DNA from: Thermoplasmata archaeon
Lineage (GTDB): Archaea; Thermoplasmatota; Thermoplasmata; Lutacidiplasmatales; UBA184
Reading direction: 5' to 3'
Length of the DNA stretch: 64,000 nt
Assembly: GCA_049585415.1 (NCBI GenBank)
Contig: JBAUZT010000019.1
Coordinates: forward strand, 10,152 to 74,151
Positions 12,717 to 26,644 of this stretch are shown here, piece by piece. Every line of letters starts with the position of its first letter. Positions within the stretch are counted from its first letter, which is position 1. The notes beneath the pieces were generated by a model that worked only from the letters and a program-made list of their open reading frames with translations, was not told the origin of the DNA and made no database searches. Both the position numbers and the translations under genes were made by a program.

Positions 12717-12882
12717 GGGAGCATAGGCTAACTTGGCAGACCAGCGGGCTCCAGTCAGGGTGCGGTCACTCGTGCCCTGTGAATATGGGTCTGCGGAGGA
12801 ACGCGAGCGGCGTTCCTGTGACGATTGACTGGAGCGCGCGGAGAGACCCGCATATGGGGGTTCAAATCCCCCTGCTCCCACC
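12717..12882 (+). tRNA. tRNA-Trp (anticodon CCA) with a roughly 91-nt intron (12755..12845) at the canonical 37/38 position
   Basis: Acceptor GGGAGCA/TGCTCCC, T-arm GGGGG-TTCAAAT-CCCCC, anticodon stem GCGGG/CCCGC, loop CUCCAG with the intron inserted after position 37. The CC of CCA is encoded. Confidence 0.7.
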
Positions 12883-16455: not shown

Positions 16456-16606
16456 GCGCAGTCGGGCACCGGCCGGCATGGTTGTCTGCGCGTGCGCTAC
16501 TTTGACATTCCGATAGGGCCGGTGGTTTTCCTCGGAAGTTTGTCGCTGCGGGAGCGTCAGAGAGCTTATGGGCACGGACCTGGTTCTTTTGGTGAGGTAG
16601 CCGCCA

Positions 16607-17001
16607 TGGTGCACGTCGAGATTCGACCCGCGGCGATGGAGCAAGTGAAGACGCTCATTCGCGGCCAGAAGCCCGAGATCGGAGTGCGGGTGTACGCCCA
16701 GCCCGGTGGCGGGGGATGTTGCGGCGGCGGTAGCGCAGTCCAGTTCGGGCTCGCGTTCGCCAAACCCCGCGCGGACGACGAGGTGGTCCGGGTCGACGGC
16801 TTCGCCGTCCTCGTGGACCCGACGAGCACCAAGTTCGTCGACGGTGCGGTCATCGATTACGTCGAGGACCTTAGCCAGTCCGGTTTCAAAATTACGAACC
16901 CCACGCTCCCCGAGCCGGACGCGAAAGGTCTGGCGGGGGGATGCACCTCTTGTGGCAGCAACGCCGAAAACGGCGGCGGTTGCGGCTGCGGAAGCCACTA
17001 G
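16607..17001 (+). CDS. HesB/IscA-family Fe-S cluster insertion protein
   Basis: MVHVEIRPAAMEQVKTL..., a conserved Cys in the GGGCCGGG region and a C-terminal C-x-x-C-G-S motif (GGCTSCGS), plus a Gly/Cys-rich tail. Start chosen at an internal ATG. Confidence 0.65.
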
Positions 17002-17140: not shown

Positions 17141-18067
17141 ATGAGCGGGGAAGCATTGCGGAGCGTCGACCTCCGCAAGATCTACGAGTCGCGGGGCACC
17201 GCTCCCGTCGAGGCGCTCACCGGCGTCTCGATGGAGGTCCACCGCGGCGAGCGGGTAGCGCTCCTCGGCCGGAACGGTGCGGGGAAGACGACGTTCCTCA
17301 AGATCGCCTCGACGCTCCTCCGCCCGACGTCCGGTAGCGTCGAGGTGTTCGGGTTCGACGTGCGCGACGCCCCCGAGAAGGCCCGACCGTACATCGCGGT
17401 CGTTCCCCAGGAGGGGAAGCCGTTTTTCCACCTCACCCCCCGAGAGCAGATCTACACCTATCTCCGGGCCCGAGGGTTCAGCAAAGAGACGGCGAAGTCC
17501 CGCACCGAGGACGCGGTCGAGCGGATGGGGCTCACCGGGTTCGCGGACCGGCTCTCGGTGACGCTCTCGGGCGGCCAGCGCCAGCGGACGATGGTGGCGA
17601 CCGTGATCGCGACCGAGTCCCCGCTGCTCTTCCTCGACGAGCCGACGATCGGCATGGACCCGTTCGCGCGCCGAGAGGTATGGGCGTCGCTGCGGACGCT
17701 CACCCAAAAGGGATCGACGATCCTCTTGACGACGCATTACCTCGACGAGGCCGAGGTCCTCAGCAATCGACTCTACATCGTCGAGCAGGGTCGCGTGCTC
17801 TCGAGCGGCACGGCGGAGGACCTGAAGCGTTCGGTCGGCGGCACGATCAAGGTCTTGATGCCGGAGGGCGCCGCTCAGGTCGACCGCTTCCGCTCGTTCG
17901 GCCACTGCGTGACCGACGGGCCGGCGCTCACCGTCATCGTGCAGCCGGACGTCCTCGGGGAGCTGATGGAGCTCACCGTTCGGTCGGAATTGACCGCGAC
18001 GGTGGGTCCGGTGACCTTGGAGGAAGCGTTCCTGCGCGCCGTAGGACGGTCGATCGATGCAGAGTAA
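17141..18067 (+). CDS. ABC-2 type transporter ATP-binding protein
   Basis: Walker A GRNGAGKTT, signature LSGGQRQR, Walker B LLFLDEPT. Confidence 0.85.
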   Translation: MSGEALRSVDLRKIYESRGTAPVEALTGVSMEVHRGERVALLGRNGAGKTTFLKIASTLLRPTSGSVEVFGFDVRDAPEKARPYIAVVPQEGKPFFHLTPREQIYTYLRARGFSKETAKSRTEDAVERMGLTGFADRLSVTLSGGQRQRTMVATVIATESPLLFLDEPTIGMDPFARREVWASLRTLTQKGSTILLTTHYLDEAEVLSNRLYIVEQGRVLSSGTAEDLKRSVGGTIKVLMPEGAAQVDRFRSFGHCVTDGPALTVIVQPDVLGELMELTVRSELTATVGPVTLEEAFLRAVGRSIDAE

Positions 18068-18821
18068 CCAGTCCCTCGCCCCGTCGCGCGCGTTCGCCGG
18101 CACGCTGGCCTTCCTCTGGACCGAGGTGCTCGTCCAGGGGAACGAACGGATGGCGATGCTCACGTCGATGGTGGTCCCCGGGATCATCCTAGTCTTCGTG
18201 CTGATCCTGAACCCGGCGCTCTTCTCGATCGCGCTCGTCGGGGCGATCCTCTTCTCGACGTTCACGATGGGCCAGCGCGTGCTCAACGAGGCGGCGTATC
18301 TTCGGATCGACCACAAGGCGAACGACCTCTACCTCGCCGGCCCGATGACCCCCGAAGCGTACTTCGTCGGCATGTCGGTCGGCATCTTGATCATCTACCT
18401 CACGCCCACCGTCTTCCTCGGGATCCTCGCGACGTTCGTCGTCCCGCTTTCGCTCGCCACGGGTCTCCTCTTGCTCGCCCTCGCCTCGGTCGTCTGGCTG
18501 TTCGCCGCCTCCACCGGTTACATCTTCTCGACGTTCTTCCGGGACAACCGCGCGATCTGGGCGTACTCGAGCCTGTTCTTCAACGTCTTCGGCGTCCTCA
18601 TGCCAGTGTTCTACCCGCTCGCGCTCTTCCCCGCGGACGTTCGACCGATCGCGCTCCTCCTGCCGCCGAGCGCGGCCGCCGCGCTCGTGCAATCGGCGAT
18701 CGGGGTGACCTCGCTCTCGTCGGCCCAGGTCGCGCTCGCGGTCGGGGGCCTCGTCGTCGAGACCTCGGCCCTCTTCGTCTTCGCGATCTACTGGGCGCGT
18801 CGAACCGTGAGGGAGCGCTAG
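18057..18821 (+). CDS. ABC-2 type transporter permease
   Basis: Six-TM hydrophobic protein overlapping the ATPase stop. Confidence 0.6.
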   Translation: MQSNQSLAPSRAFAGTLAFLWTEVLVQGNERMAMLTSMVVPGIILVFVLILNPALFSIALVGAILFSTFTMGQRVLNEAAYLRIDHKANDLYLAGPMTPEAYFVGMSVGILIIYLTPTVFLGILATFVVPLSLATGLLLLALASVVWLFAASTGYIFSTFFRDNRAIWAYSSLFFNVFGVLMPVFYPLALFPADVRPIALLLPPSAAAALVQSAIGVTSLSSAQVALAVGGLVVETSALFVFAIYWARRTVRER

Positions 18822-19604
18822 ATGGCGACCGGGACCGAGCTCTTTCCGAGCGTGCCCACCCGCGGCCGGGCGCTCCCCGCGTTCGGGATCGTCGGTTGGC
18901 GATGGATCTCGCGCAATCCCGCGGTGGCGATCACCCCGGTGTTGCTCCCGTTCATCTTCCTCTACTTCCTCTCGCTGATCTCGCCCCCGTCCCTCCTCCC
19001 GCTCGAGATCGTCGGCGCGATGCTGTTCACGATGCAGAACATCGGGAGCTGGACGCTCGGCGACAGCGCGTTCTGGCGGATCGAGTGCTCGCTCCAGGAC
19101 ATGTTCGTCGCGAGCCCGCTCTCGAGGATCCGCTACCTCTTCGGGATCGCGTTCTCGAACCTCATCGCGATGGTCCCGGCCCTCGTGGTGCTCATGGTGC
19201 TCCTCACCTGGGTCGGGGGACACCACGGCTACCCGTTCACCCCGTTGGCGGCGGTCGCGCTGTTCGCCGGCCTCCTGACCCTCTGGGTTCTCTTCTCGTC
19301 GATCGGGATCGCGATCTCGAGCCGGATCAAGACCCAGCGCGAGATCTGGCCGGTGGGGAACCTGACGTTCACGATCCTCGGGATGCTCTCGCCGTTGTAC
19401 TACCCGCTCAGCGCCCTCCCGCCCCTCTGGCAGGACGTCGCGCGGTTCCTCCCCACGACGTACGCCGCGCTCCTCGTTCAGGGAGCGCTCGGGATCACGC
19501 CCGCGACCCCGGCCCAACTGCTCCTCTACGCCGGGCTCCTCGCCGTGTGCGCCGTCGCCGGCCTCACGATCACACTGCGCCTCTACCGCTGGGGCGAAGG
19601 GTGA
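18822..19604 (+). CDS. ABC-2 type transporter permease (second subunit)
   Basis: Six-TM hydrophobic protein, immediately adjacent and paralogous in architecture. Confidence 0.6.
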   Translation: MATGTELFPSVPTRGRALPAFGIVGWRWISRNPAVAITPVLLPFIFLYFLSLISPPSLLPLEIVGAMLFTMQNIGSWTLGDSAFWRIECSLQDMFVASPLSRIRYLFGIAFSNLIAMVPALVVLMVLLTWVGGHHGYPFTPLAAVALFAGLLTLWVLFSSIGIAISSRIKTQREIWPVGNLTFTILGMLSPLYYPLSALPPLWQDVARFLPTTYAALLVQGALGITPATPAQLLLYAGLLAVCAVAGLTITLRLYRWGEG

Positions 19605-19775
19605 ACGACATTAAGGAAACGTTCAAACGGAGTGGCGTCATGCTCTCTTTGGTGCGCCCACCGAAACTCCAACCGGACGTTCGCCGCCCCGGCTTCCGGG
19701 CCGCCTCCCCGTTCGGTACCCTCCGATTTTCGATCCGTTCGCTTCCGCAAGGAGGACGGTACTAGAGGTCCCACG

Positions 19776-20093
19776 ATGGGCAACGACGAGTTCGACGAGA
19801 TCCTCTCCGCGCTCGACCGCGAGACGGCCCGCATCCGTGTGCGGGCGGAGCCCCGCCGGTACAACAAGCCCGCGACCGTGATCGGGGGGTTCCCGCCCGG
19901 GGTCGACCTCGCGGAGACGACCCGTTCGCTCAAGAACCGCCTCGCGACGGGCGGCTCGGTGGTGGACGGCGAGGTCTACCTGCAAGGCGACCACCGCGCG
20001 CGGATCCGCGACGAGCTCGCTCGCCTCGGTTTCGACCCCGAGACCGTCGAGGTCTCGGATGCGCCGCTCCCGAAGCGCGGACGCCGCGGATAG
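19776..20093 (+). CDS. translation initiation factor aSUI1 (eIF1 homologue)
   Basis: About 105 aa with ...YNKPATVIGGFPPGVDLAETTRSLKNRLATGGSVVDGEVYLQGDHR... characteristic of SUI1. Preceded by an AGGAGGA Shine-Dalgarno-like motif. Confidence 0.8.
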   Translation: MGNDEFDEILSALDRETARIRVRAEPRRYNKPATVIGGFPPGVDLAETTRSLKNRLATGGSVVDGEVYLQGDHRARIRDELARLGFDPETVEVSDAPLPKRGRRG

Positions 20094-20231
20094 CCTCCTT
20101 CCGCGGACCGCGTAAACCGCGCGCATCAACCCTTCGATTTCCCAATTTCTGCTCTTATTCGGCGCGATTCAGCGCCAATTGTGCGGGACGGTGAGGGTAT
20201 ATTCCCCGGCGCTTCGGGCGACCGGAGCTCT

Positions 20232-21089
20232 ATGTCCGCGTACGCGCACCCGGAAGTCCTCGTCGAGAACGATTGGCTCGCCCAGCACCTGAACGACCCG
20301 AAGGTCCGTGTCGCCGAGGTCGACTACGACCCCGCCGCGAACTACGAGCTCGGCCACATACCGGGCTCGGTACTGTTCGACTGGCGGAAGGACATCAACG
20401 ACCCCATCGCCCGAGACATCCTCTCGCAGCACGCAGCGACCGCGCTGTTCGGGCGCGGTGGGATCGACCCCGAAACGACACTGGTGCTGTATGGTGACTT
20501 CAACAACTGGTTCGCGGCGTTCGGGTTCTGGGTGTTCTCCTACTACGGCGTGAAGAACCTGAAGCTCCTGAACGGCGGCCGCAAGAAGTGGATCGCCGAA
20601 GACCGACCCCTCACGAAGGACGTTCCACCGGAGGGCGCGGGCAAGCTCAAGGCGAGCGCCCCCGACCCGAAGCTCCGCGCGTTCCTCGAGGACGTGCGAA
20701 AGGCGCTGCCCGAGGTCAAGGCCGGGAAGTTCGGCCTCGTGGACGTGCGGGGGCCGAAGGAGTTCTCGGGAGAGATCACGGCGCCGCCGGAGTACCCGAC
20801 CGAGCACGCGCAGCGGGGCGGCCACATCCCCGGCGCGAAGAACATCCCCTGGGCGCAGGCGGTCAAGGACGATGGGACGTTCAAGTCCCCCGAAGAACTC
20901 GCGCAGCTCTACAGCTCGAAAGGGATCACCGCCGGGACGCCGGTGATCACGTACTGCCGCATCGGCGAGCGGTCCAGCCACACCTGGTTCGTCCTGAAGT
21001 ACCTCCTCGGATACCCCGACGTCCGCAACTACGACGGGTCGTGGACCGAGTGGGGGAACCTCGTCCGGACCCCGATCGAGAAGCCGTAA
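20232..21089 (+). CDS. thiosulfate/3-mercaptopyruvate sulfurtransferase (two rhodanese domains)
   Basis: Tandem rhodanese domains and the active-site loop CRIGERSS. A TATA-like element (GGTATATTCC) about 25 nt upstream of the ATG at 20232 suggests a leaderless start. Confidence 0.85.
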   Translation: MSAYAHPEVLVENDWLAQHLNDPKVRVAEVDYDPAANYELGHIPGSVLFDWRKDINDPIARDILSQHAATALFGRGGIDPETTLVLYGDFNNWFAAFGFWVFSYYGVKNLKLLNGGRKKWIAEDRPLTKDVPPEGAGKLKASAPDPKLRAFLEDVRKALPEVKAGKFGLVDVRGPKEFSGEITAPPEYPTEHAQRGGHIPGAKNIPWAQAVKDDGTFKSPEELAQLYSSKGITAGTPVITYCRIGERSSHTWFVLKYLLGYPDVRNYDGSWTEWGNLVRTPIEKP

Positions 21090-21112
21090 GCGGCGAGGGT
21101 CCGGAAACTCTT

Positions 21113-21886
21113 TCAGCCCCCCGGTCGCCGCTTCGGCACCGGGTGGGCTTCCTTGCGAACCAGGAACTGGTGGAGGTTTCCCTCGCGCCGGCGCGCGAGG
21201 AGGGCGTGGCCGGTCTGGTCCGACCACCGCTCCATCTCGATCGGGCTGGTCGGGTCATCCGTCACGAGCAGGACGGCGGAGCCTGCGGGCCATCGCGTGA
21301 GCTCCTCGTTGAGCATCGTCAGTATCGCGGAGCATTCGATCCCGATCTCGAACATCTCGACTTCCGGGGTCCGGGGCCAGCAGCGGATCCGGCGGTCCCG
21401 GATGCGCTCGATGAGCCGGTCCCGGATCGCCTCGACCGACTGAAGGGTCGACGGAAGGGTCGCATCGCTCACGGGACGCACGCGCACGATCCAGCCCTCG
21501 CTGTATGGGGCGTCGTTGAGGAGGCGGGGCCGCTCGACGACCGCCGGGTTCCGCTCCACGATCTCCGCATCCATCGGGAGACGGACCGCCCCGGTGTACC
21601 GTTGGCTCTCGACCGTCGCGACGCTCCGGCCCTGGCCGACCGTGCCGACGATCGGCCGGAACGTGACCGATTGGAAGCGGCCCGCGAACCAGACGAGCGG
21701 GCCGAGGAGCCCCACCCGCCCACTGCCGCCCGAAGGGTCCGGGAGATACCATACCTCGTTCTCGAGGTCGTACAGCCGGTCCTCGGGAACGTCGCACCCG
21801 CCGATCTCCACGCCCGCGGAAGCCGGCGAGTCCGCTTTACTCCTGCGCGGCCGCAAGCTTTTCCATGCGTCCCGCTCCTCGCCCAC
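21113..21886 (-). CDS. GcvH-like (lipoyl-Lys replaced by Arg) / TusA-like sulfur-carrier fusion protein
   Basis: N-terminal half aligns to glycine-cleavage H protein (VATVESQRYTGAV...YSEGWIVRV), but the lipoyl Lys position reads Arg. C-terminal half matches TusA (IECSAIL...WPAGSAVLLVTDDPTS...TGHALL). Confidence 0.55.
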   Translation of the reverse strand: MGEERDAWKSLRPRRSKADSPASAGVEIGGCDVPEDRLYDLENEVWYLPDPSGGSGRVGLLGPLVWFAGRFQSVTFRPIVGTVGQGRSVATVESQRYTGAVRLPMDAEIVERNPAVVERPRLLNDAPYSEGWIVRVRPVSDATLPSTLQSVEAIRDRLIERIRDRRIRCWPRTPEVEMFEIGIECSAILTMLNEELTRWPAGSAVLLVTDDPTSPIEMERWSDQTGHALLARRREGNLHQFLVRKEAHPVPKRRPGG

Positions 21887-22089
21887 CCATGGTGGGGAAG
21901 CCGGAGTCTGCCCCTTCTCCGCTCGTCACGGCGCGGGCTCGGTGCCGATGCGGGCACCTGCCGACCCACCACATGCTCGTCGTGCCGGTCGGGTCGAGCG
22001 CGAGCTTCCGCCTCGACCCTTCCGGCCCGTGCGCGCTCTGCGGTGAGGGCGTCTGCCGCAAGTTCACTCCCGGCGGACCGTGAGGCGGA

Positions 22090-22548
22090 CTACCCGTAGG
22101 CAGCCTTGATCAGGTAGTCTTTGAGACGATGGAGCCGATCGTCCCATAGGTGGAAGTGCCACGAACGGGCGTCCTCCCACGCTTCCCCCGAGCCCCAACC
22201 CGAGTGTTCCAGCGTCACGTCGATTCCCTCCGGCGACTCGGCGAGACGCACATACACGTGCGTCTTCGGTTCCGGAGCATTGAGGAGGGTCTCGAACGGC
22301 GGAGGAGCGAGCCAGCTGAAGTCGATGTCGAGGTCCGTGTGCATGTCGAGGATCTTCCCGCGGCTTTCGAAGGAGGTCGGACTCGACCATCCGAGGACGT
22401 ACTCCCCGCCGACCCGCGGGTCCACTCGCGCGGAGTCGCAGAGCCAGCCCGTCAACTGCGTCGGGTCCGTGAACGCCCCGAAGATCATCGGGATGGGCAG
22501 TGGGACCGTCACCTGGATGAGGATCGGGTCGAGTTCGTCATCCACCAC
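22090..22548 (-). CDS. SRPBCC-family protein (AHSA1/START-like)
   Basis: About 150 aa with an SRPBCC-like profile. Confidence 0.5.
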   Translation of the reverse strand: MVDDELDPILIQVTVPLPIPMIFGAFTDPTQLTGWLCDSARVDPRVGGEYVLGWSSPTSFESRGKILDMHTDLDIDFSWLAPPPFETLLNAPEPKTHVYVRLAESPEGIDVTLEHSGWGSGEAWEDARSWHFHLWDDRLHRLKDYLIKAAYG

Positions 22549-22689
22549 GGCGCTCGGTTCCGCCTTCAGGGCCTAAAGGGTTTGCGAAGGGCCGGGGCAG
22601 AGAGAATGCATGCGGGGTTTTCGCGACGGCGACCCGGGCCCGCCAATGGAGGGGTCTTGCGGGGGGCTCGGGGAGGGATTTCCCCCCGT

Positions 22690-22715
22690 AAAAATCGTGG
22701 CCAACCTTTATGGTT
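22690..22715 (+). promoter_or_regulatory. putative archaeal BRE/TATA promoter (AAAATCG...CTTTATGG) for the large surface-protein gene
   Basis: An AT-rich octamer in an otherwise 68% GC context, about 20-25 nt upstream of the ATG at 22733, suggesting a leaderless mRNA. Confidence 0.3.
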
Positions 22716-22732
22716 TGTGAGGCGACAGCCCG

Positions 22733-25700
22733 ATGCGCATGAACGCACCTCGCGCGAAGGTGGGTCTCGCCATATTGGTGACCTTGGTTCTGGTGGTCTC
22801 GTCGCTGGGATTACTCGGGGCCGTGGGAACGTCCACCGCGGCCAGTTCCACTCCGGCCCCGGCGAGCGCAGCCCATGCCGCCAGCACGTCGGTCCCCGCG
22901 TCGCCCACGAGCCTGAGCGCCGGATCGACGACCCCGGTGGCCCATCTCGGCACTCAATCGATCCCCCTGCCCGAGCCGACGGTCCCATCGGCCGGCGAAG
23001 CGAACACTCCGGCCGCTCAGAAGATTCTGCAATCCCTCTCCGCGAAGGGCGTCCCTCTCCACGACGTCTTCCTTCCCTACTTGATGAACGGTCCTCACCC
23101 GGGCCTTACGAATGGGCACGTCAACCTCACCTACACCAGCAGCCCCGCGCCGTACGGGATCGGCGACTTCGGACTCAAGAACGTCTCGGGGGTCATCACC
23201 CCCTACCGCCTTGCCACCCCGAGCGTGGAAGCGAACTTCTCCACCGACGGACTCTCGGGGTACTCCGCGGATATCAGCGGCCCGGACGAATGGGGAGTCC
23301 AGCTCAACGCCGTCCTCAACAACGTCACCCTGTTCGGCACGGGAGGCTACCAGTTCTGGACCCAGAATGTTATCGAGTACTCCCCGGCGCTCGGTTCCCT
23401 GACGCTCCTCAGTAACATCTGGAACTTCTCGGCCTACGAGGCCGCCCTGCCCTGTGACGTCTTCATCGAGTATACGGGAGTCCTCGCGTGCCCGGAGTTC
23501 TGGTATACCGCCTCGACCCCGATTCCCACCACCATCCCGTTCACTCTCCAACTGTACCTGAACTCGTCTCTGGTCGGTGGCCGGGACAAGGTCGACTTCA
23601 ACTACTCGCTGACCCAGGGTTCCGGAACGACCTCCGGCAACTACGCTCATGCGGTCTTCAACTCGCTCGCACCGGGGGGAAACCCGGCCCTGACCCCCGC
23701 GCCCGCGTATGTCGCGAACGGTGCGGCCTACAACCCCGCCGGTCTTCCGGACGACTTCGAAGTCATGCTGGGTGGCCCCGGCGGTGGAAGCAACTTTGAC
23801 GTTTATCTTGCCTCATACACCTACATGACGCTCCAGTACTGGAGCGCCGCCGCCCACGCTTATCTCACGGTCCCCTCCGCCTACAACGTCGGCGGGGATA
23901 CGGGCGAGACCTCGGTCGGCGTGAACGCGGCGTGGAGTAGCTTCACCTCGGAAGGGGGTTCGCCTCCGTCGGAGATCCCCACCAGCTGCCTCGCCTGCGT
24001 GACGCTGTCGAACGGCCCCTCCTTCCAGTATGGTCTTTGGAACGTGTTGGGCGCCGGGGTGCACGGATATAGCCCGCACGTCGAGACCGACTGGTTTGAC
24101 CAGTCCCACATTGATTTCGAGTTACAGCCCGGGAATGCGTTCCTGTTCCTCGCCGAATCCTGGCTCTTCACCTCATGGGGTGGGACCAACTTCTCTACGT
24201 TCCAATGGACCCCGAACTTCGATTGGACGACGGTTCACGTTGTCCTGCCGGTGGGGAACTACACGGTGGTTAGCGTGCAGTCGGAATTCGACCCACTGGC
24301 CGGTTCCTGGAGTTTCGTCACCAACCTCGAGACGGCTTCCGGCCTGTTTTCGATGGTCCCCGACCTCAACAATGGGGTCTACACGCCGCTGTGGGCGTTC
24401 AATACCACCGGGCTTCAGAAGATCTCCTCCGGAGTTGACGGTCTGGGCGACGACGTCCTCTTCAACAACGAGTACGCCAACATTGGCCAGATCCCCGATA
24501 CGACTACGTTCGGCGCCACCCCGTATTTCCCGTGGTTCGGACTCATGAACGACTACGGGTTCCCGGTGTTCCCAGGAATCCTTCTCTCCGGCGTGGATTT
24601 TGTGGACGTCACCAGCGCCCCCTCGTTCACGGTCGCGGCCCCCGGCGCGCCGAGTTATGACCTAAACCTCGTCAGGAACCTGGGATGGCCGGAGACAAAC
24701 AATCTCCAGATGTTCATCTGGGAGAGCGCGTTCATCACCTTGGCATCGTCCACGATCACGGGTTGGTGGCCGGCGGTCTCGTTCTTCGGCTTGAGCCAGT
24801 CCTTTGCGAACGTGGTCTTTTGGAACACCTCGTTCGCGGTGATCGACGGAAACCTGTTCTCTACCGGGGGGATGGCCCTCTTCCTGTACGGCGGGGAATA
24901 CAACGAGATCGAGGGCAACGTCTTCGAGACCGGATCCTCCCCGCCCTCCGCCAACCCGTCCGCGACCGTCGCGGAGACCCAAGGCTCGATCGGACTCGTG
25001 GACGCCGATTGGGGGGACGCGTACCTCTATGGCGCTCAGGCGTGGTTCAACTGCGTGGTGTGCGACGAGATCTACAACAACGCATTCATCACGCTCATCA
25101 CAGCGGACAGCCCGTCGTTGGACCCGTATACGGGGAACGCTCCGGGGCTCGCGCCCTACTCCTTCAGTCAGGCCTGGAACTTCGCGTACACGACGGGCTC
25201 CACCAACATCATCGGCGGGAACTACATCGGCGGGAACTACTGGTGGGACTACGGGTATGCCGACAACCCCTACGGATACCTGCCGGACGTCGAGCTGAGC
25301 TACGTGCCGTTAGTCGAGTCCCACGACTCCTCTCCCCCCGCGACCATCTGCGTGGACCCTTTGGGGTCGTGTGACCAGGGTGCAGGGGATTACTATCCCC
25401 TCGTGAACGTCCCGATCTACAACATCACGTTCAAAGAGCAGGGGTTGCCCACCGGGACGGAATGGGAGGTCGAAGTTTACGTCCCACCGTTGTACTACTA
25501 CTTCCAGGACGAGGACGAGTACAACTACACGCTCGCGCCCAAGGTGCTGAATTTCACCGAGTCCGCCGGCGACTGGTACTACTATCCGTACACCGGCGAC
25601 CCGAACTACGCGGCGTTCGACGGGAACGTCACGATCACGAACAAGAGCGTGGTGGTCCTCGTGAAGTTCCAGACCGCGTACAAACTCACGTTCATCGAGA

Positions 25701-26644
25701 GCGGTCTCCCCTCGATGACGGACTGGGACGTGGAGGTCGAGAACTATGCCACGGACTTTGAAGGGTACAACTACAGCGATCACCCTTCGATGAACGTCTC
25801 GGGCATACTCCCTGGAACGTACGAGTATTATTCCTACACGTACGGTTCGGCGTCCGGGAAGTACATCCCGTCCCCGAACGACGTCTACATCACTGTCAGC
25901 GCGAATGCGACCGTGCACATCACGTTCGCACCCGCGTACCGATTGTCCGTCCATGCCGTCGGGCTCCCCTCGGGGTGGGACTGGTACTTCTCCGCGACCG
26001 GCTCGGGGGCGAACTACTCCGAGTACACTTCCGACACGTGGTACAACGTCACGGTCGGCTCCGGCACGTACTCCTGGCAAACCCAGGCGGTGGGATACGC
26101 CGCTTCGCCCAGCTCGGGGACACTACCGGTGACGGCGAACACCACACTCACGATCACGTTCGTGAGCCTGGCCTCGGCCACCGGAGCCCTCTCCGGCACG
26201 GTCACCCCGGCGTCGGCCACCCTGTGGGTGGACGGTACCCCGGAGACCCTCGGAGCGGGCGGAAGCTACGACCTGACGCTCCCGATCGGCATCCATAGCG
26301 TCGAGGTCAAGGACTCGGGGTACGCGACGTACTTCAACAACGTCACGGTCTTTCTCGGCCAGACGACGACGTTGAACATCGCGCTCACGCCGGTCACGTC
26401 CTCGAGCAGCTCAAGTCCGGGCGGCATTAGCAACCTCGGCTGGATCCTGATCGCGCTCCTCGCAGCGGTCGCGGCGATCCTCTTGGTGACGACGTTGATC
26501 TTCGCGCGTCGCCGACGCACGCCGCCCCCCGTCGCCCCGTACAACGCGCCACCCTCCATGGGAGGCGCGGCGGGTGCGCCCCCGGCGGGCGCCGCCCAAC
26601 CGTGGCAGGAGTCCCCACCGCCACCGCCCGCCGGCGGCAGCTAA
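22733..26644 (+). CDS. very large surface (S-layer-like) glycoprotein with right-handed β-helix repeats, a PEGA-like domain and a C-terminal TM anchor
   Basis: Signal peptide (MRMNAPRAKVGLAILVTLVLVVSSLG), more than 40 N-x-S/T sequons, pectate-lyase/NosD-like repeat region (NLFSTGGMALFLYGGEYNEIEGNVFE), PEGA-like β-sandwich near the C-terminus, then a Ser-rich linker, a TM helix, RRRR and a Pro-rich tail. Confidence 0.7.
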   Translation: MRMNAPRAKVGLAILVTLVLVVSSLGLLGAVGTSTAASSTPAPASAAHAASTSVPASPTSLSAGSTTPVAHLGTQSIPLPEPTVPSAGEANTPAAQKILQSLSAKGVPLHDVFLPYLMNGPHPGLTNGHVNLTYTSSPAPYGIGDFGLKNVSGVITPYRLATPSVEANFSTDGLSGYSADISGPDEWGVQLNAVLNNVTLFGTGGYQFWTQNVIEYSPALGSLTLLSNIWNFSAYEAALPCDVFIEYTGVLACPEFWYTASTPIPTTIPFTLQLYLNSSLVGGRDKVDFNYSLTQGSGTTSGNYAHAVFNSLAPGGNPALTPAPAYVANGAAYNPAGLPDDFEVMLGGPGGGSNFDVYLASYTYMTLQYWSAAAHAYLTVPSAYNVGGDTGETSVGVNAAWSSFTSEGGSPPSEIPTSCLACVTLSNGPSFQYGLWNVLGAGVHGYSPHVETDWFDQSHIDFELQPGNAFLFLAESWLFTSWGGTNFSTFQWTPNFDWTTVHVVLPVGNYTVVSVQSEFDPLAGSWSFVTNLETASGLFSMVPDLNNGVYTPLWAFNTTGLQKISSGVDGLGDDVLFNNEYANIGQIPDTTTFGATPYFPWFGLMNDYGFPVFPGILLSGVDFVDVTSAPSFTVAAPGAPSYDLNLVRNLGWPETNNLQMFIWESAFITLASSTITGWWPAVSFFGLSQSFANVVFWNTSFAVIDGNLFSTGGMALFLYGGEYNEIEGNVFETGSSPPSANPSATVAETQGSIGLVDADWGDAYLYGAQAWFNCVVCDEIYNNAFITLITADSPSLDPYTGNAPGLAPYSFSQAWNFAYTTGSTNIIGGNYIGGNYWWDYGYADNPYGYLPDVELSYVPLVESHDSSPPATICVDPLGSCDQGAGDYYPLVNVPIYNITFKEQGLPTGTEWEVEVYVPPLYYYFQDEDEYNYTLAPKVLNFTESAGDWYYYPYTGDPNYAAFDGNVTITNKSVVVLVKFQTAYKLTFIESGLPSMTDWDVEVENYATDFEGYNYSDHPSMNVSGILPGTYEYYSYTYGSASGKYIPSPNDVYITVSANATVHITFAPAYRLSVHAVGLPSGWDWYFSATGSGANYSEYTSDTWYNVTVGSGTYSWQTQAVGYAASPSSGTLPVTANTTLTITFVSLASATGALSGTVTPASATLWVDGTPETLGAGGSYDLTLPIGIHSVEVKDSGYATYFNNVTVFLGQTTTLNIALTPVTSSSSSSPGGISNLGWILIALLAAVAAILLVTTLIFARRRRTPPPVAPYNAPPSMGGAAGAPPAGAAQPWQESPPPPPAGGS

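Follow-up and report, generated by a model that had tools for sequence, protein, structure and literature searches.

In the 2018 description of LbpA (PMC6067878), this protein of the sHdr sulfur oxidisers is distinguished from the glycine cleavage H protein (GcvH) by two additional conserved cysteines, located towards the N- and the C-terminus respectively, and its lipoate-binding lysine is strictly conserved. The passages of that paper that deal with the two cysteines discuss a role in binding the sulfur substrate and mention no cluster. In Aquifex, TusA and LbpA interact physically (PMC11094781). The rhodanese SseA of M. tuberculosis is activated by the product of a neighbouring SufE-like gene, Rv3284 (PMC12375888).

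Here, we analysed a 64-kb stretch of DNA from a soil archaeon of the Thermoplasmata (hereafter, the window), in which a protein that joins a GcvH-like and a TusA-like domain is encoded beside a rhodanese. Persulfide transfer from rhodanese to TusA is established biochemistry in other systems (reviewed in PMC11094781), and the CstR regulon of S. aureus includes CstA, a multidomain sulfurtransferase with rhodanese, TusA-like and DsrE-like domains. To our knowledge, the two conserved cysteines of LbpA have had no assigned role since the protein was described in 2018.

Results

The two genes of the pair converge. The rhodanese gene (20232..21089, + strand) encodes 285 aa of the CysA/SseA/1UAR subfamily, and the Pfam Rhodanese model matched it with 114 bits over two stretches. 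The best PDB match was T. thermophilus 1UAR (372 bits, full length), and the mycobacterial SseA/CysA2 structures scored 288-301 bits (SseA 3HZU, 288). Its two domains are in tandem, and the catalytic Cys242 (codon 20955..20957, + strand) lies in a six-residue loop of the C-terminal domain, C-R-I-G-E-R-S, which aligned with the active-site loop of 1UAR. The stop codons of the two genes are separated by a spacer of 23 bp (21090..21112), in which neither an Rfam match nor an intrinsic-terminator-like site was found. The tail-to-tail arrangement with a CRIGERS-type rhodanese, described in an earlier reading of the sequence alone (the sequence-only reading), was thus verified.

The open reading frame that this reading had assigned to the fusion protein, 21113..21886 (- strand), exists, but its upstream end is probably not the start of the gene. 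Homologues are nearly all about 231-232 aa long and begin with M-E-[IV]-x-G-C; therefore, the likely start codon is the GTG at 21811 rather than 21886, and the fusion gene itself probably spans 21113..21811 (- strand; 232 aa plus stop). The third-position G+C content was 0.89-0.91 in the fusion and rhodanese frames (0.89 in the fusion gene), which is typical of real genes in a genome of 68% G+C and indicates that both frames are coding. A GTAAAG element (21835..21840, - strand), roughly 27 nt before the GTG, may be the archaeal TATA box of a leaderless fusion mRNA. Rfam, promoter and terminator scans returned nothing in the locus, the promoter scan being based on sigma-70 and not applicable to archaea. 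GTAAAG is among the few A+T-rich hexamers in a spacer of 68% G+C.

The AlphaFold model of the fusion protein had a pLDDT of 95.9 and a pTM of 0.87. The N-terminal domain (residues 1-146; 21374..21811, - strand), which includes a C-terminal helix and the linker with Cys144, matched Pfam GCV_H (PF01597) with 61.2 bits against a cut-off of 22.2 (E 1.2e-16), and its model superposed on the T. thermophilus H-protein 1onl with a TM-score of 0.91 and an rmsd of 1.6 Å (Foldseek). The GcvH fold proposed for this half is therefore well above noise. The scores against the GcvH equivalogs were far lower than their cut-offs (TIGR00527, 38.9 bits against 115.85; PRK01202, 53.5 against 117). The C-terminal domain (residues 147-232; 21116..21373, - strand) carries the DDP motif and scored 26.0 bits with Pfam TusA (PF01206), slightly below the cut-off of 28.6, although PF01206 is recorded for most homologues of the fusion protein. 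Because the fusion-family profile matched E. coli TusA (E 4e-11) and the model superposed on E. coli TusA 3lvj_C (Foldseek; TM-score 0.86, rmsd 1.3 Å), the assignment of the TusA half is secure despite the sub-threshold score. The fusion of a GcvH-like with a TusA domain, as first read from the sequence, was thus borne out by both the profiles and the predicted fold.

Among weak Foldseek matches, the TusA fold also resembled IF3-C. A link to translation, drawn from this resemblance and from a neighbouring SUI1 gene, was considered and rejected, since SUI1 is syntenic only in the closest clade, and the whole family shares the cysteines and the sulfur-gene contexts.

In GcvH, lipoate is carried on the lysine of E-S-V-K. 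HMM alignment to 1onl and 3a8i placed the E-S-x-R of the family on this motif, with Arg71 (21599..21601, - strand) at the lipoyl-lysine position. According to the DSSP assignment of the model, residues 70-72 (Q-R-Y) form a 3-residue turn that joins strands 63-69 and 73-77, so that Arg71 occupies the hairpin tip, which was the point of the structural check suggested with the sequence-only reading. Arg was present at this position in all 121 close homologues and in 21 of 21 hot-spring loci, which confirms the claim that the lipoyl-lysine has been replaced and that the protein cannot be lipoylated. In the family as a whole, six residues (R, K, T, M, V and S) were seen. Among 34 diverse representatives, 20 had Arg, 11 had Lys and 3 had another residue, so that about one third carry a hairpin Lys, in the context E-[SGT]-x-K. 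Two orthologues that are 93% identical carry Arg (L026) and Lys (L043), and L024 carries Thr. Since the hairpin residue drifts even between such close orthologues, lipoate is evidently not the conserved function.

Set against this drifting residue are three near-invariant cysteines. Cys6 (21794..21796, - strand), the N-terminal cysteine of the LbpA signature (PMC6067878), was found in 32 of the 34 representatives and in every genome and metagenome locus except L057. Its C-terminal counterpart, Cys144 (21380..21382, - strand), lies in the inter-domain linker (I-R-C-W-P) and was found in 33 of 34; its loss was seen only jointly with that of Cys6, in P0187/L057. Cys160 (21332..21334, - strand), at the persulfide-carrier position of TusA and at the N-terminus of helix 160-171 in the model, was invariant (34/34). 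Together with the DDP motif, this cysteine, in IECSAIL, makes up the TusA signature that had been noted at the outset. The motif reads C-S-A-I in the query clade, and the classical C-P-x-P or C-P-x-x in some family members.

The closest stand-alone relatives of the N-terminal half were LbpA proteins encoded in shdr/dsrE/tusA clusters. One of them, P0173 (41% identical), is encoded in a dsrE-hdrC1B1A-hyp-hdrC2B2-lbpA cluster, and another, P0197, in a tusA-dsrE-dsrE-lbpA-...CCG cluster. For 33 of 35 fusion N-halves, the best stand-alone match had an N-terminal Cys, and for 32 of 35 the scores were higher with the LbpA-type set than with canonical GcvH (median difference, +9.5 bits). Judged by sequence, the N-half is of the LbpA type and not GcvH proper.

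Of 49 genome loci, 38 have the same rhodanese orthologue next to the fusion gene, and they come from Thermoplasmata as well as from Nitrososphaerales. The orthologue recurs even where the fusion protein shares only 23-40% identity with the query. The pair converges here and in Nitrososphaerales, so that its genes are not co-transcribed there. Co-directional operons with the rhodanese gene first are found in the distant members L053, L057, L058 and L059 and in 8 hot-spring loci, the gaps in the latter being about 3-83 bp and mostly 6 bp. In L053, the rhodanese and fusion genes are followed by genes for DsrE, TusA and a cysteine desulfurase (Aminotran_5), and in L061 a DsrE-TusA-Pyr_redox_2-ArsR-type HTH gene set runs divergently from the fusion gene. 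Nine loci of one clade (clade C) have a pirin-like gene in place of the adjacent rhodanese. The link to the rhodanese, which had been put forward as a candidate persulfide relay, is strongly supported by this adjacency across distant archaeal lineages. The rhodanese is 65-69% identical across archaeal phyla; this was not accepted as evidence for a recent transfer of the pair, because the subfamily is generally slow-evolving (372 bits to Thermus 1UAR over the full length).

A DrrA-like ATPase gene and two ABC-2 permease genes (17141..18067, 18057..18821 and 18822..19604, + strand), identified by Pfam and NCBIfam matches, lie 1.5 kb away, with the SUI1 gene between them and the rhodanese gene. 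They are syntenic in 17-19 close loci. In L054 and L059, ABC genes come immediately after the fusion gene; to these, the permeases of the window were 26-33% identical and the ATPase 39-41%, the latter being weak evidence by itself because ABC ATPases are in general 30-40% identical. Homologous ABC-2 genes likewise directly follow the fusion gene in 11 hot-spring loci; in these and in L054, the order is fusion>ABC>ABC2 and there is no adjacent rhodanese. The ABC-2 exporter may tentatively be regarded as a third partner of the pair. An A-type Fe-S carrier (IscA) is encoded 4 kb upstream, and 11 close loci, all of the closest clade, share this synteny. By tblastn, no homologue of HdrA/B/C or DsrE was found within 8 kb in 50 genome loci or in the 64-kb window. 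No lipoate-ligase or lipoyl-synthase family was present in the window or in the Pfam-listed locus contexts, and the window contained neither gcvT nor gcvP.

Two homologue searches returned about 630 and 563 matches, and metagenome loci were gathered by a scan with a 4-sequence sub-alignment. The family is thus not rare. The supposition that the fusion is undescribed stood: no description of a GcvH/LbpA-TusA fusion was found among PubMed Central open-access papers and bioRxiv. Current automatic labels are "glycine cleavage system H protein", "TusA family" and "hypothetical", the first of which is misleading for more than 1000 database entries. There was no cultured host among the cluster members examined. 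Overall, the claims of the sequence-only reading are supported as far as sequence analysis reaches.

Discussion

We consider that the two proteins probably form a cytoplasmic, cysteine-based relay of sulfane sulfur (persulfide), running from the rhodanese to Cys160 of the TusA-like domain and possibly on to Cys144 and Cys6. Thiosulfate or some other sulfane donor would load Cys242 of the rhodanese with a persulfide, and the rhodanese, if the direction of transfer is as we propose, would pass the sulfur to Cys160. The N-terminal domain would be a derivative of the LbpA of sHdr sulfur oxidisers that has given up lipoate (Arg71) and retained Cys6 and Cys144, and the entire domain may provide a scaffold for docking and carrier functions. 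Acting as a pair, the two retained cysteines could supply additional thiols for relay or resolution, or could staple the domains together in a redox-sensitive manner. The downstream acceptor would depend on the lineage: either DsrE/TusA/cysteine-desulfurase-linked biosynthetic trafficking or, probably here, the ABC-2 exporter. The latter would suggest disposal or export of sulfur species, should the transporter take part and such species be its substrate. Several observations speak against a relay. Nine loci of one clade have the pirin-like gene and no adjacent rhodanese, the convergent layout here and in Nitrososphaerales precludes co-transcription, the TusA half has C-S-A-I without the prolines of C-P-x-P and scores slightly below the Pfam cut-off, and the SUI1 gene parts the ABC genes from the pair in this window. 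A more specific form of the proposal, in which the LbpA scaffold carries a lipoate-independent thiol relay from Cys160 to Cys144/Cys6 that is fed by the rhodanese and coupled to the ABC-2 transporter in several lineages, is put forward here as a possibility, and a doubtful one; a basic hairpin (Arg71/Arg77) might then bind anionic sulfur species.

Other explanations of the locus were weighed against the relay. In our judgement, the rhodanese adjacency is unlikely to be a mere relic of past synteny or of the horizontal transfer of a block, in which sulfur is not handed over directly and the true partner is the ABC-2 transporter or an unlinked system, for example with the fusion protein as a regulatory or substrate-binding accessory. 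The convergent orientation here and in Nitrososphaerales, the L054 and 11 hot-spring loci with the ABC genes and no adjacent rhodanese, and the pirin-like gene of clade C would all agree with such a history. However, the rhodanese recurs beside fusion proteins of 23-40% identity in both convergent and co-directional order, with gaps down to 6 bp, DsrE and TusA genes sometimes follow, and rhodanese-to-TusA transfer is established elsewhere. Nor do we think it at all likely that a metal or an Fe-S cluster is ligated by Cys6, Cys144 and Cys160, perhaps with ligands from both subunits of a dimer, in an Fe-S carrier, scaffold or redox sensor. Cys160 falls exactly at the persulfide position of TusA, with C-P-x-P retained in some members, and there is no conserved His or fourth Cys. 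Three near-invariant cysteines, two of which are jointly absent in the single exception, would fit a cluster, but lipoylated LbpAs share both Cys6 and Cys144, for which the relevant passages of PMC6067878 name a sulfur-substrate role and no cluster. The IscA gene 4 kb upstream, syntenic in 11 close loci, and the cysteine desulfurase in the distant L053 operon also point towards Fe-S chemistry, but the IscA synteny is limited to the closest clade.

Least credible is a functional lipoate- or acyl-carrying LbpA/GcvH-TusA protein for sHdr sulfur oxidation or glycine cleavage, of which the Arg forms would be degenerate copies; we regard this as very improbable. Although the N-half is of the LbpA type, a hairpin Lys occurs in about one third of the diverse representatives, and LbpA is an interaction partner of TusA in sHdr sulfur oxidation, Arg is fixed in the 121 close homologues and all 21 hot-spring loci, and R, K and T are exchanged between near-identical orthologues. 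The HdrA/B/C and DsrE homologues sought by tblastn and the lipoate-ligase and lipoyl-synthase families were absent over the ranges given above, and the score of 38.9 bits is far under the GcvH equivalog cut-off of 115.85.

If the LbpA-scaffold thiol relay is correct, it would represent an undescribed system of sulfane-sulfur trafficking or export common to uncultured soil Thermoplasmata, Nitrososphaeraceae and hot-spring archaea, and the purpose of the conserved cysteines of LbpA would be revealed. The fusion family, in which lipoate is gone and the cysteines are kept, offers a clean system for asking what role these cysteines have and whether they are loaded by TusA. It also points to a conserved sulfur-handling module in abundant, uncultured soil archaea, including the Nitrososphaeraceae, which are the family of soil ammonia oxidisers. 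Sulfur trafficking in these archaea, for Fe-S clusters, cofactors, tRNA thiolation and persulfide detoxification, is poorly understood, and we know of no sHdr sulfur oxidisers among the soil Thermoplasmata and Nitrososphaeraceae.

Among known systems, LbpA resembles the fusion N-half in its GcvH-like fold with extra N- and C-terminal cysteines and in its tie to TusA/DsrE sulfurtransferases, which are its functional and physical partners. The fusion protein differs from it in having Arg at the lipoyl-lysine position (R/K/T/M/V/S family-wide), in the covalently joined TusA, in the lack of a nearby shdr or DsrE gene by tblastn and of a lipoate-ligase family in the window and Pfam-listed contexts, and in its hosts, which are soil Thermoplasmata and Nitrososphaeraceae. 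With GcvH it shares the fold (TM-score 0.91 to 1ONL) and the E-S-x-[K/R] hairpin geometry; unlike GcvH, it has no lipoyl-lysine, has the extra terminal cysteines and scores far below the equivalog cut-offs. The C-terminal half has the two-layer alpha/beta fold of E. coli TusA (YhhP; 1DCJ, 3LVJ), with Cys at the N-terminus of helix 1 and the DDP motif, and its genes are likewise associated with those for rhodanese, DsrE and cysteine desulfurase. It is, however, about 22% identical to E. coli TusA, has C-S-A-I instead of C-P-x-P in the query clade, and makes up the C-terminal part of a larger protein for which rigid packing is predicted (pTM 0.87). The SseA/Rv3284 pair of M. tuberculosis has a rhodanese of the same subfamily and a small, neighbouring, cysteine-bearing partner of the sulfur-acceptor type; there, the partner is SufE-like rather than LbpA/TusA, and the host is bacterial. 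The S. aureus CstA is also bacterial and has no GcvH/LbpA fold, but it has a TusA-like domain covalently fused to other sulfur-relay domains, and its operon, which handles reactive sulfur species, encodes an exporter.

Reading frame of the fusion gene

The window has a G+C content of about 68% and, by synteny and database names, belongs to an uncultured Thermoplasmata archaeon from soil. The mechanical ORF at 21113..21886 (-) encodes 257 aa. Hundreds of homologues of the fusion protein are 231–232 aa long and begin with M-E-[IV]-x-G-C; therefore, the gene likely starts at the GTG at 21811 and encodes 232 aa. The frame in the sequence-only reading held, whereas its upstream end likely did not. 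A GTAAAG about 27 nt upstream of this GTG could, by inference, be the TATA box of a leaderless mRNA. GC3 was 0.89–0.91 in the fusion and rhodanese frames. A public long-read assembly (L068; ENA ERZ25039587 contig_77214) was 99.83% identical to the window over L068:1-6567 (window 18319..24885), with six single-base indels, one of which leaves the fusion gene as two fragments of 188 and 80 aa. The indels also shortened the rhodanese to 260 aa and struck the ABC-2 and thermopsin genes. They are probably homopolymer errors of that assembly, and the unbroken frame of the window is judged the correct one by its agreement with the whole family.

Domains and predicted fold

Pfam GCV_H matched the fusion protein with 61.2 bits (cut-off 22.2) and TusA with 26.0 bits, slightly below its cut-off of 28.6. 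The NCBIfam GcvH and TusA equivalogs matched far under their cut-offs, and the NCBIfam scan returned no dedicated family model. A profile from 31 diverse family members detected E. coli TusA at E 4e-11 and GcvH structures at E values from 1e-25 to 1e-18. The AlphaFold model built on this 31-member alignment was very confident (pLDDT 95.9, pTM 0.87), and in Foldseek its N-half fitted T. thermophilus H-protein with a TM of 0.91 and an rmsd of 1.6 A, its C-half E. coli TusA with a TM of 0.86 and an rmsd of 1.3 A. The GcvH-like/TusA fusion proposed earlier is thus confirmed. The Foldseek search found no solved chain carrying both domains. Mean identity to the window protein among the representatives was 43% for the C-half and 34% for the N-half, and the two halves are under comparable constraint. 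Two proteins, P0175 (742 aa) and P0266 (824 aa), carry six tandem TusA-like domains, each with C-P-x-P-I, after a Cys-rich N-terminal domain, an unusual architecture.

LbpA character of the N-half

Among 34 family representatives at 50% identity, three cysteines were near-invariant: Cys6 (32/34), Cys144 in the linker between the domains (33/34) and TusA Cys160 (34/34). The sole member without Cys6 (P0187, locus L057) also lacked Cys144, which suggests that Cys6 and Cys144 work together. Two such cysteines, absent from GcvH and placed near either end of the GcvH-like domain, mark the sHdr-associated lipoate-binding protein LbpA (Cao et al., PMC6067878). Among stand-alone proteins, those most similar to the N-half were about 147 aa long with the pattern M-A-x-x-x-G-C...E-S-G-K-W-V-G-P...C. 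They included P0173 (41% identical) in a dsrE-hdrC1-hdrB1-hdrA-hyp-hdrC2-hdrB2-lbpA cluster, P0197 in a tusA-dsrE-dsrE-lbpA-...CCG cluster, and P0168 from a tandem GCV_H gene pair. With the Cys144 region left out of the query, the best stand-alone match bore the N-terminal Cys for 33 of 35 fusion N-halves, and LbpA-type proteins outscored canonical GcvH in 32 of 35 (median 9.5 bits) within a comparison set made up of the top matches to the window protein. By these comparisons, the N-half is assigned to the LbpA type rather than to generic GcvH.

In the HMM alignment, the family E-S-x-R falls on the GcvH E-S-V-K, and residues 70–72 of the model form a tight turn joining strands 63–69 and 73–77; therefore, the model places Arg71 exactly at the lipoyl hairpin tip. 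The replacement of the lipoyl-lysine by Arg, as first read, was thus borne out by alignment and predicted structure. The residue was Arg in 121/121 close Thermoplasmata homologues and 21/21 hot-spring metagenome loci; the 34 representatives had R in 20, K in 11 and T/V/S in 3, and genome loci had R, K, T or M. Arg77, a second basic residue, is kept in most members. L026 (Arg) and L043 (Lys) were 93% identical, and their clade-mate L024 had Thr. Because K, R and T interchange between near-identical orthologues, the position cannot be an essential lipoylation site, and lipoate is not what the family has conserved.

Rhodanese linkage and the ABC-2 exporter

The rhodanese (20232..21089, +) is a two-domain protein of 285 aa with the catalytic loop C242-RIGERS. 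Its gene and the fusion gene stand tail to tail, as originally described, and their stop codons are separated by 23 bp. Thermus 1UAR (372 bits) and mycobacterial SseA/CysA2 are close orthologues of this rhodanese. As a TST-type enzyme it is ordinary and evolves slowly; its genomic position is the notable feature. The rhodanese adjoined the fusion gene convergently in 38 of 49 genome loci, in Thermoplasmata and Nitrososphaerales, with Nitrososphaerales fusion proteins only about 40% identical to that of the window. The order was co-directional, rhodanese before fusion, in distant members (L057 and L058, 23–37% identical) and in eight hot-spring loci (gaps of about 3–83 bp, mostly 6 bp). In L053, the order is Rhd>fusion>DsrE>TusA>cysteine desulfurase. 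A clade of about nine loci (including L026:3314-4102 and L043:7216-8004) had no adjacent rhodanese; there, the first 4 bp of the fusion gene are shared with a pirin-like cupin gene, the two likely forming an operon, and a Zn-dependent alcohol-dehydrogenase-like gene is convergent downstream. A fusion and rhodanese pair on a contig labelled 'Candidatus Acidiferrales bacterium' (L029, DATIYC010000098.1) was 40% and 66% identical to that of the window, not distinguishable by similarity from Nitrososphaerales pairs, and could reflect misbinning or cross-domain transfer.

Eleven hot-spring loci, as well as L054 and its relatives, have the order fusion>ABC ATPase>ABC-2 permease, and the rhodanese belongs to the same operon in L059 (Rhd>fusion>ABC>ABC-2, stop/start overlapping). 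The window also encodes a DrrA-like ATPase and two ABC-2 permeases (17141..19604); the rhodanese follows 0.6 kb downstream of them, with only a SUI1 gene between. The ATPase was 39–41% identical to those of the fusion>ABC operons and the permeases 26–33% identical to operon permeases (E 1e-15 to 1e-24), and the ABC-2/rhodanese/fusion layout was syntenic in 17–19 close loci. The transporter is a probable but unproven partner of the pair.

The SUI1/eIF1 ORF (19632..20093, +) was called from GTG 19632 as 153 aa; because its homologues have 105 aa and begin with MGNDEF, the ATG at 19776 is more probably its true start. The gene just before the ABC-2 genes (16492..17001, +), which is syntenic in 11 close Thermoplasmata loci, encodes an IscA/ErpA-family A-type Fe-S cluster carrier (TIGR00049, 62.8 bits); its C-terminal tail, GGCTSCGSNAENGGGCGCGSH, is unusual in being rich in Gly and Cys. 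The gene at 22733..26644 (+) encodes a secreted, membrane-anchored protein of 1303 aa. This protein has a thermopsin-like protease domain at the N-terminus (165 bits) and weak NosD- and PEGA-like repeats, and its sequence varies widely (27–59% identity) between otherwise syntenic loci. An Rfam tRNA match at 12717..12880 (+), at 164 nt far above normal tRNA length, is probably an intron-containing archaeal tRNA.

Abundance and novelty

No paper describing a GcvH/LbpA-TusA fusion was found in open-access PubMed Central or bioRxiv, in line with the view that it is undescribed. The family is not rare: at 90% identity, one search gave about 630 clusters and another 563, and at 50% identity there were about 40. 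All sequences seen came from uncultured archaea. Database names for the protein are 'glycine cleavage system H protein', 'TusA family protein' or 'hypothetical'. Each component of the module belongs to a known type. What is new is the architecture, the sHdr-free context, and that lipoate was lost while the LbpA cysteines were kept.

A candidate sulfur relay

A lipoate-dependent LbpA function would draw on the LbpA-type fold and the Lys-bearing members; we regard it as very improbable given the interchange at the hairpin. By tblastn, HdrA/B/C and DsrE were not detectable in the whole window or within 8 kb at 50 genome loci, and lipoate-ligase and lipoyl-synthase families were absent from the window and the listed gene contexts. 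The near-invariant cysteines could also form an Fe-S or metal site, which seems improbable. Synteny of rhodanese and fusion without sulfur hand-off is unlikely, if slightly less so; the clade without an adjacent rhodanese fits it, and the recurrence of the pair in both convergent and co-directional order speaks against it.

The observed folds, residues, conservation and linkage are best read, with somewhat better than even confidence, as a cysteine-based sulfane-sulfur relay, a reading that draws on known sulfur-transfer systems. We infer that rhodanese Cys242 would hand sulfur to the TusA-domain Cys160. Docking would fall to the de-lipoylated LbpA-like domain, with a putative role for Arg71, and the Cys144 and Cys6 thiols of this domain may extend the relay, resolve it or act as a redox staple. 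Which acceptor follows may depend on the lineage: linkage to DsrE, TusA and cysteine desulfurase would point to biosynthetic trafficking, and linkage to the ABC-2 transporter to export or detoxification, with a presumed sulfur substrate.

Rhodanese-to-TusA persulfide transfer is established in sulfur oxidisers (PMC11094781). In L061 (L061:3608-5879), the fusion gene and a DsrE-TusA-Pyr_redox_2-ArsR-type HTH operon are divergent, and this arrangement resembles bacterial persulfide-responsive (SqrR/BigR-type) detoxification operons. The L061 archaeon encodes Topo-IB; the eukaryotic-type enzyme is typical of Nitrososphaerota, to which we take it likely to belong. TusA-DsrE-LbpA interactions are likewise established in sulfur oxidisers (PMC11094781). 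The M. tuberculosis system is alike in having a rhodanese of the same subfamily next to the gene for a sulfur-acceptor-type protein, and there the neighbouring protein activates the rhodanese (PMC12375888).
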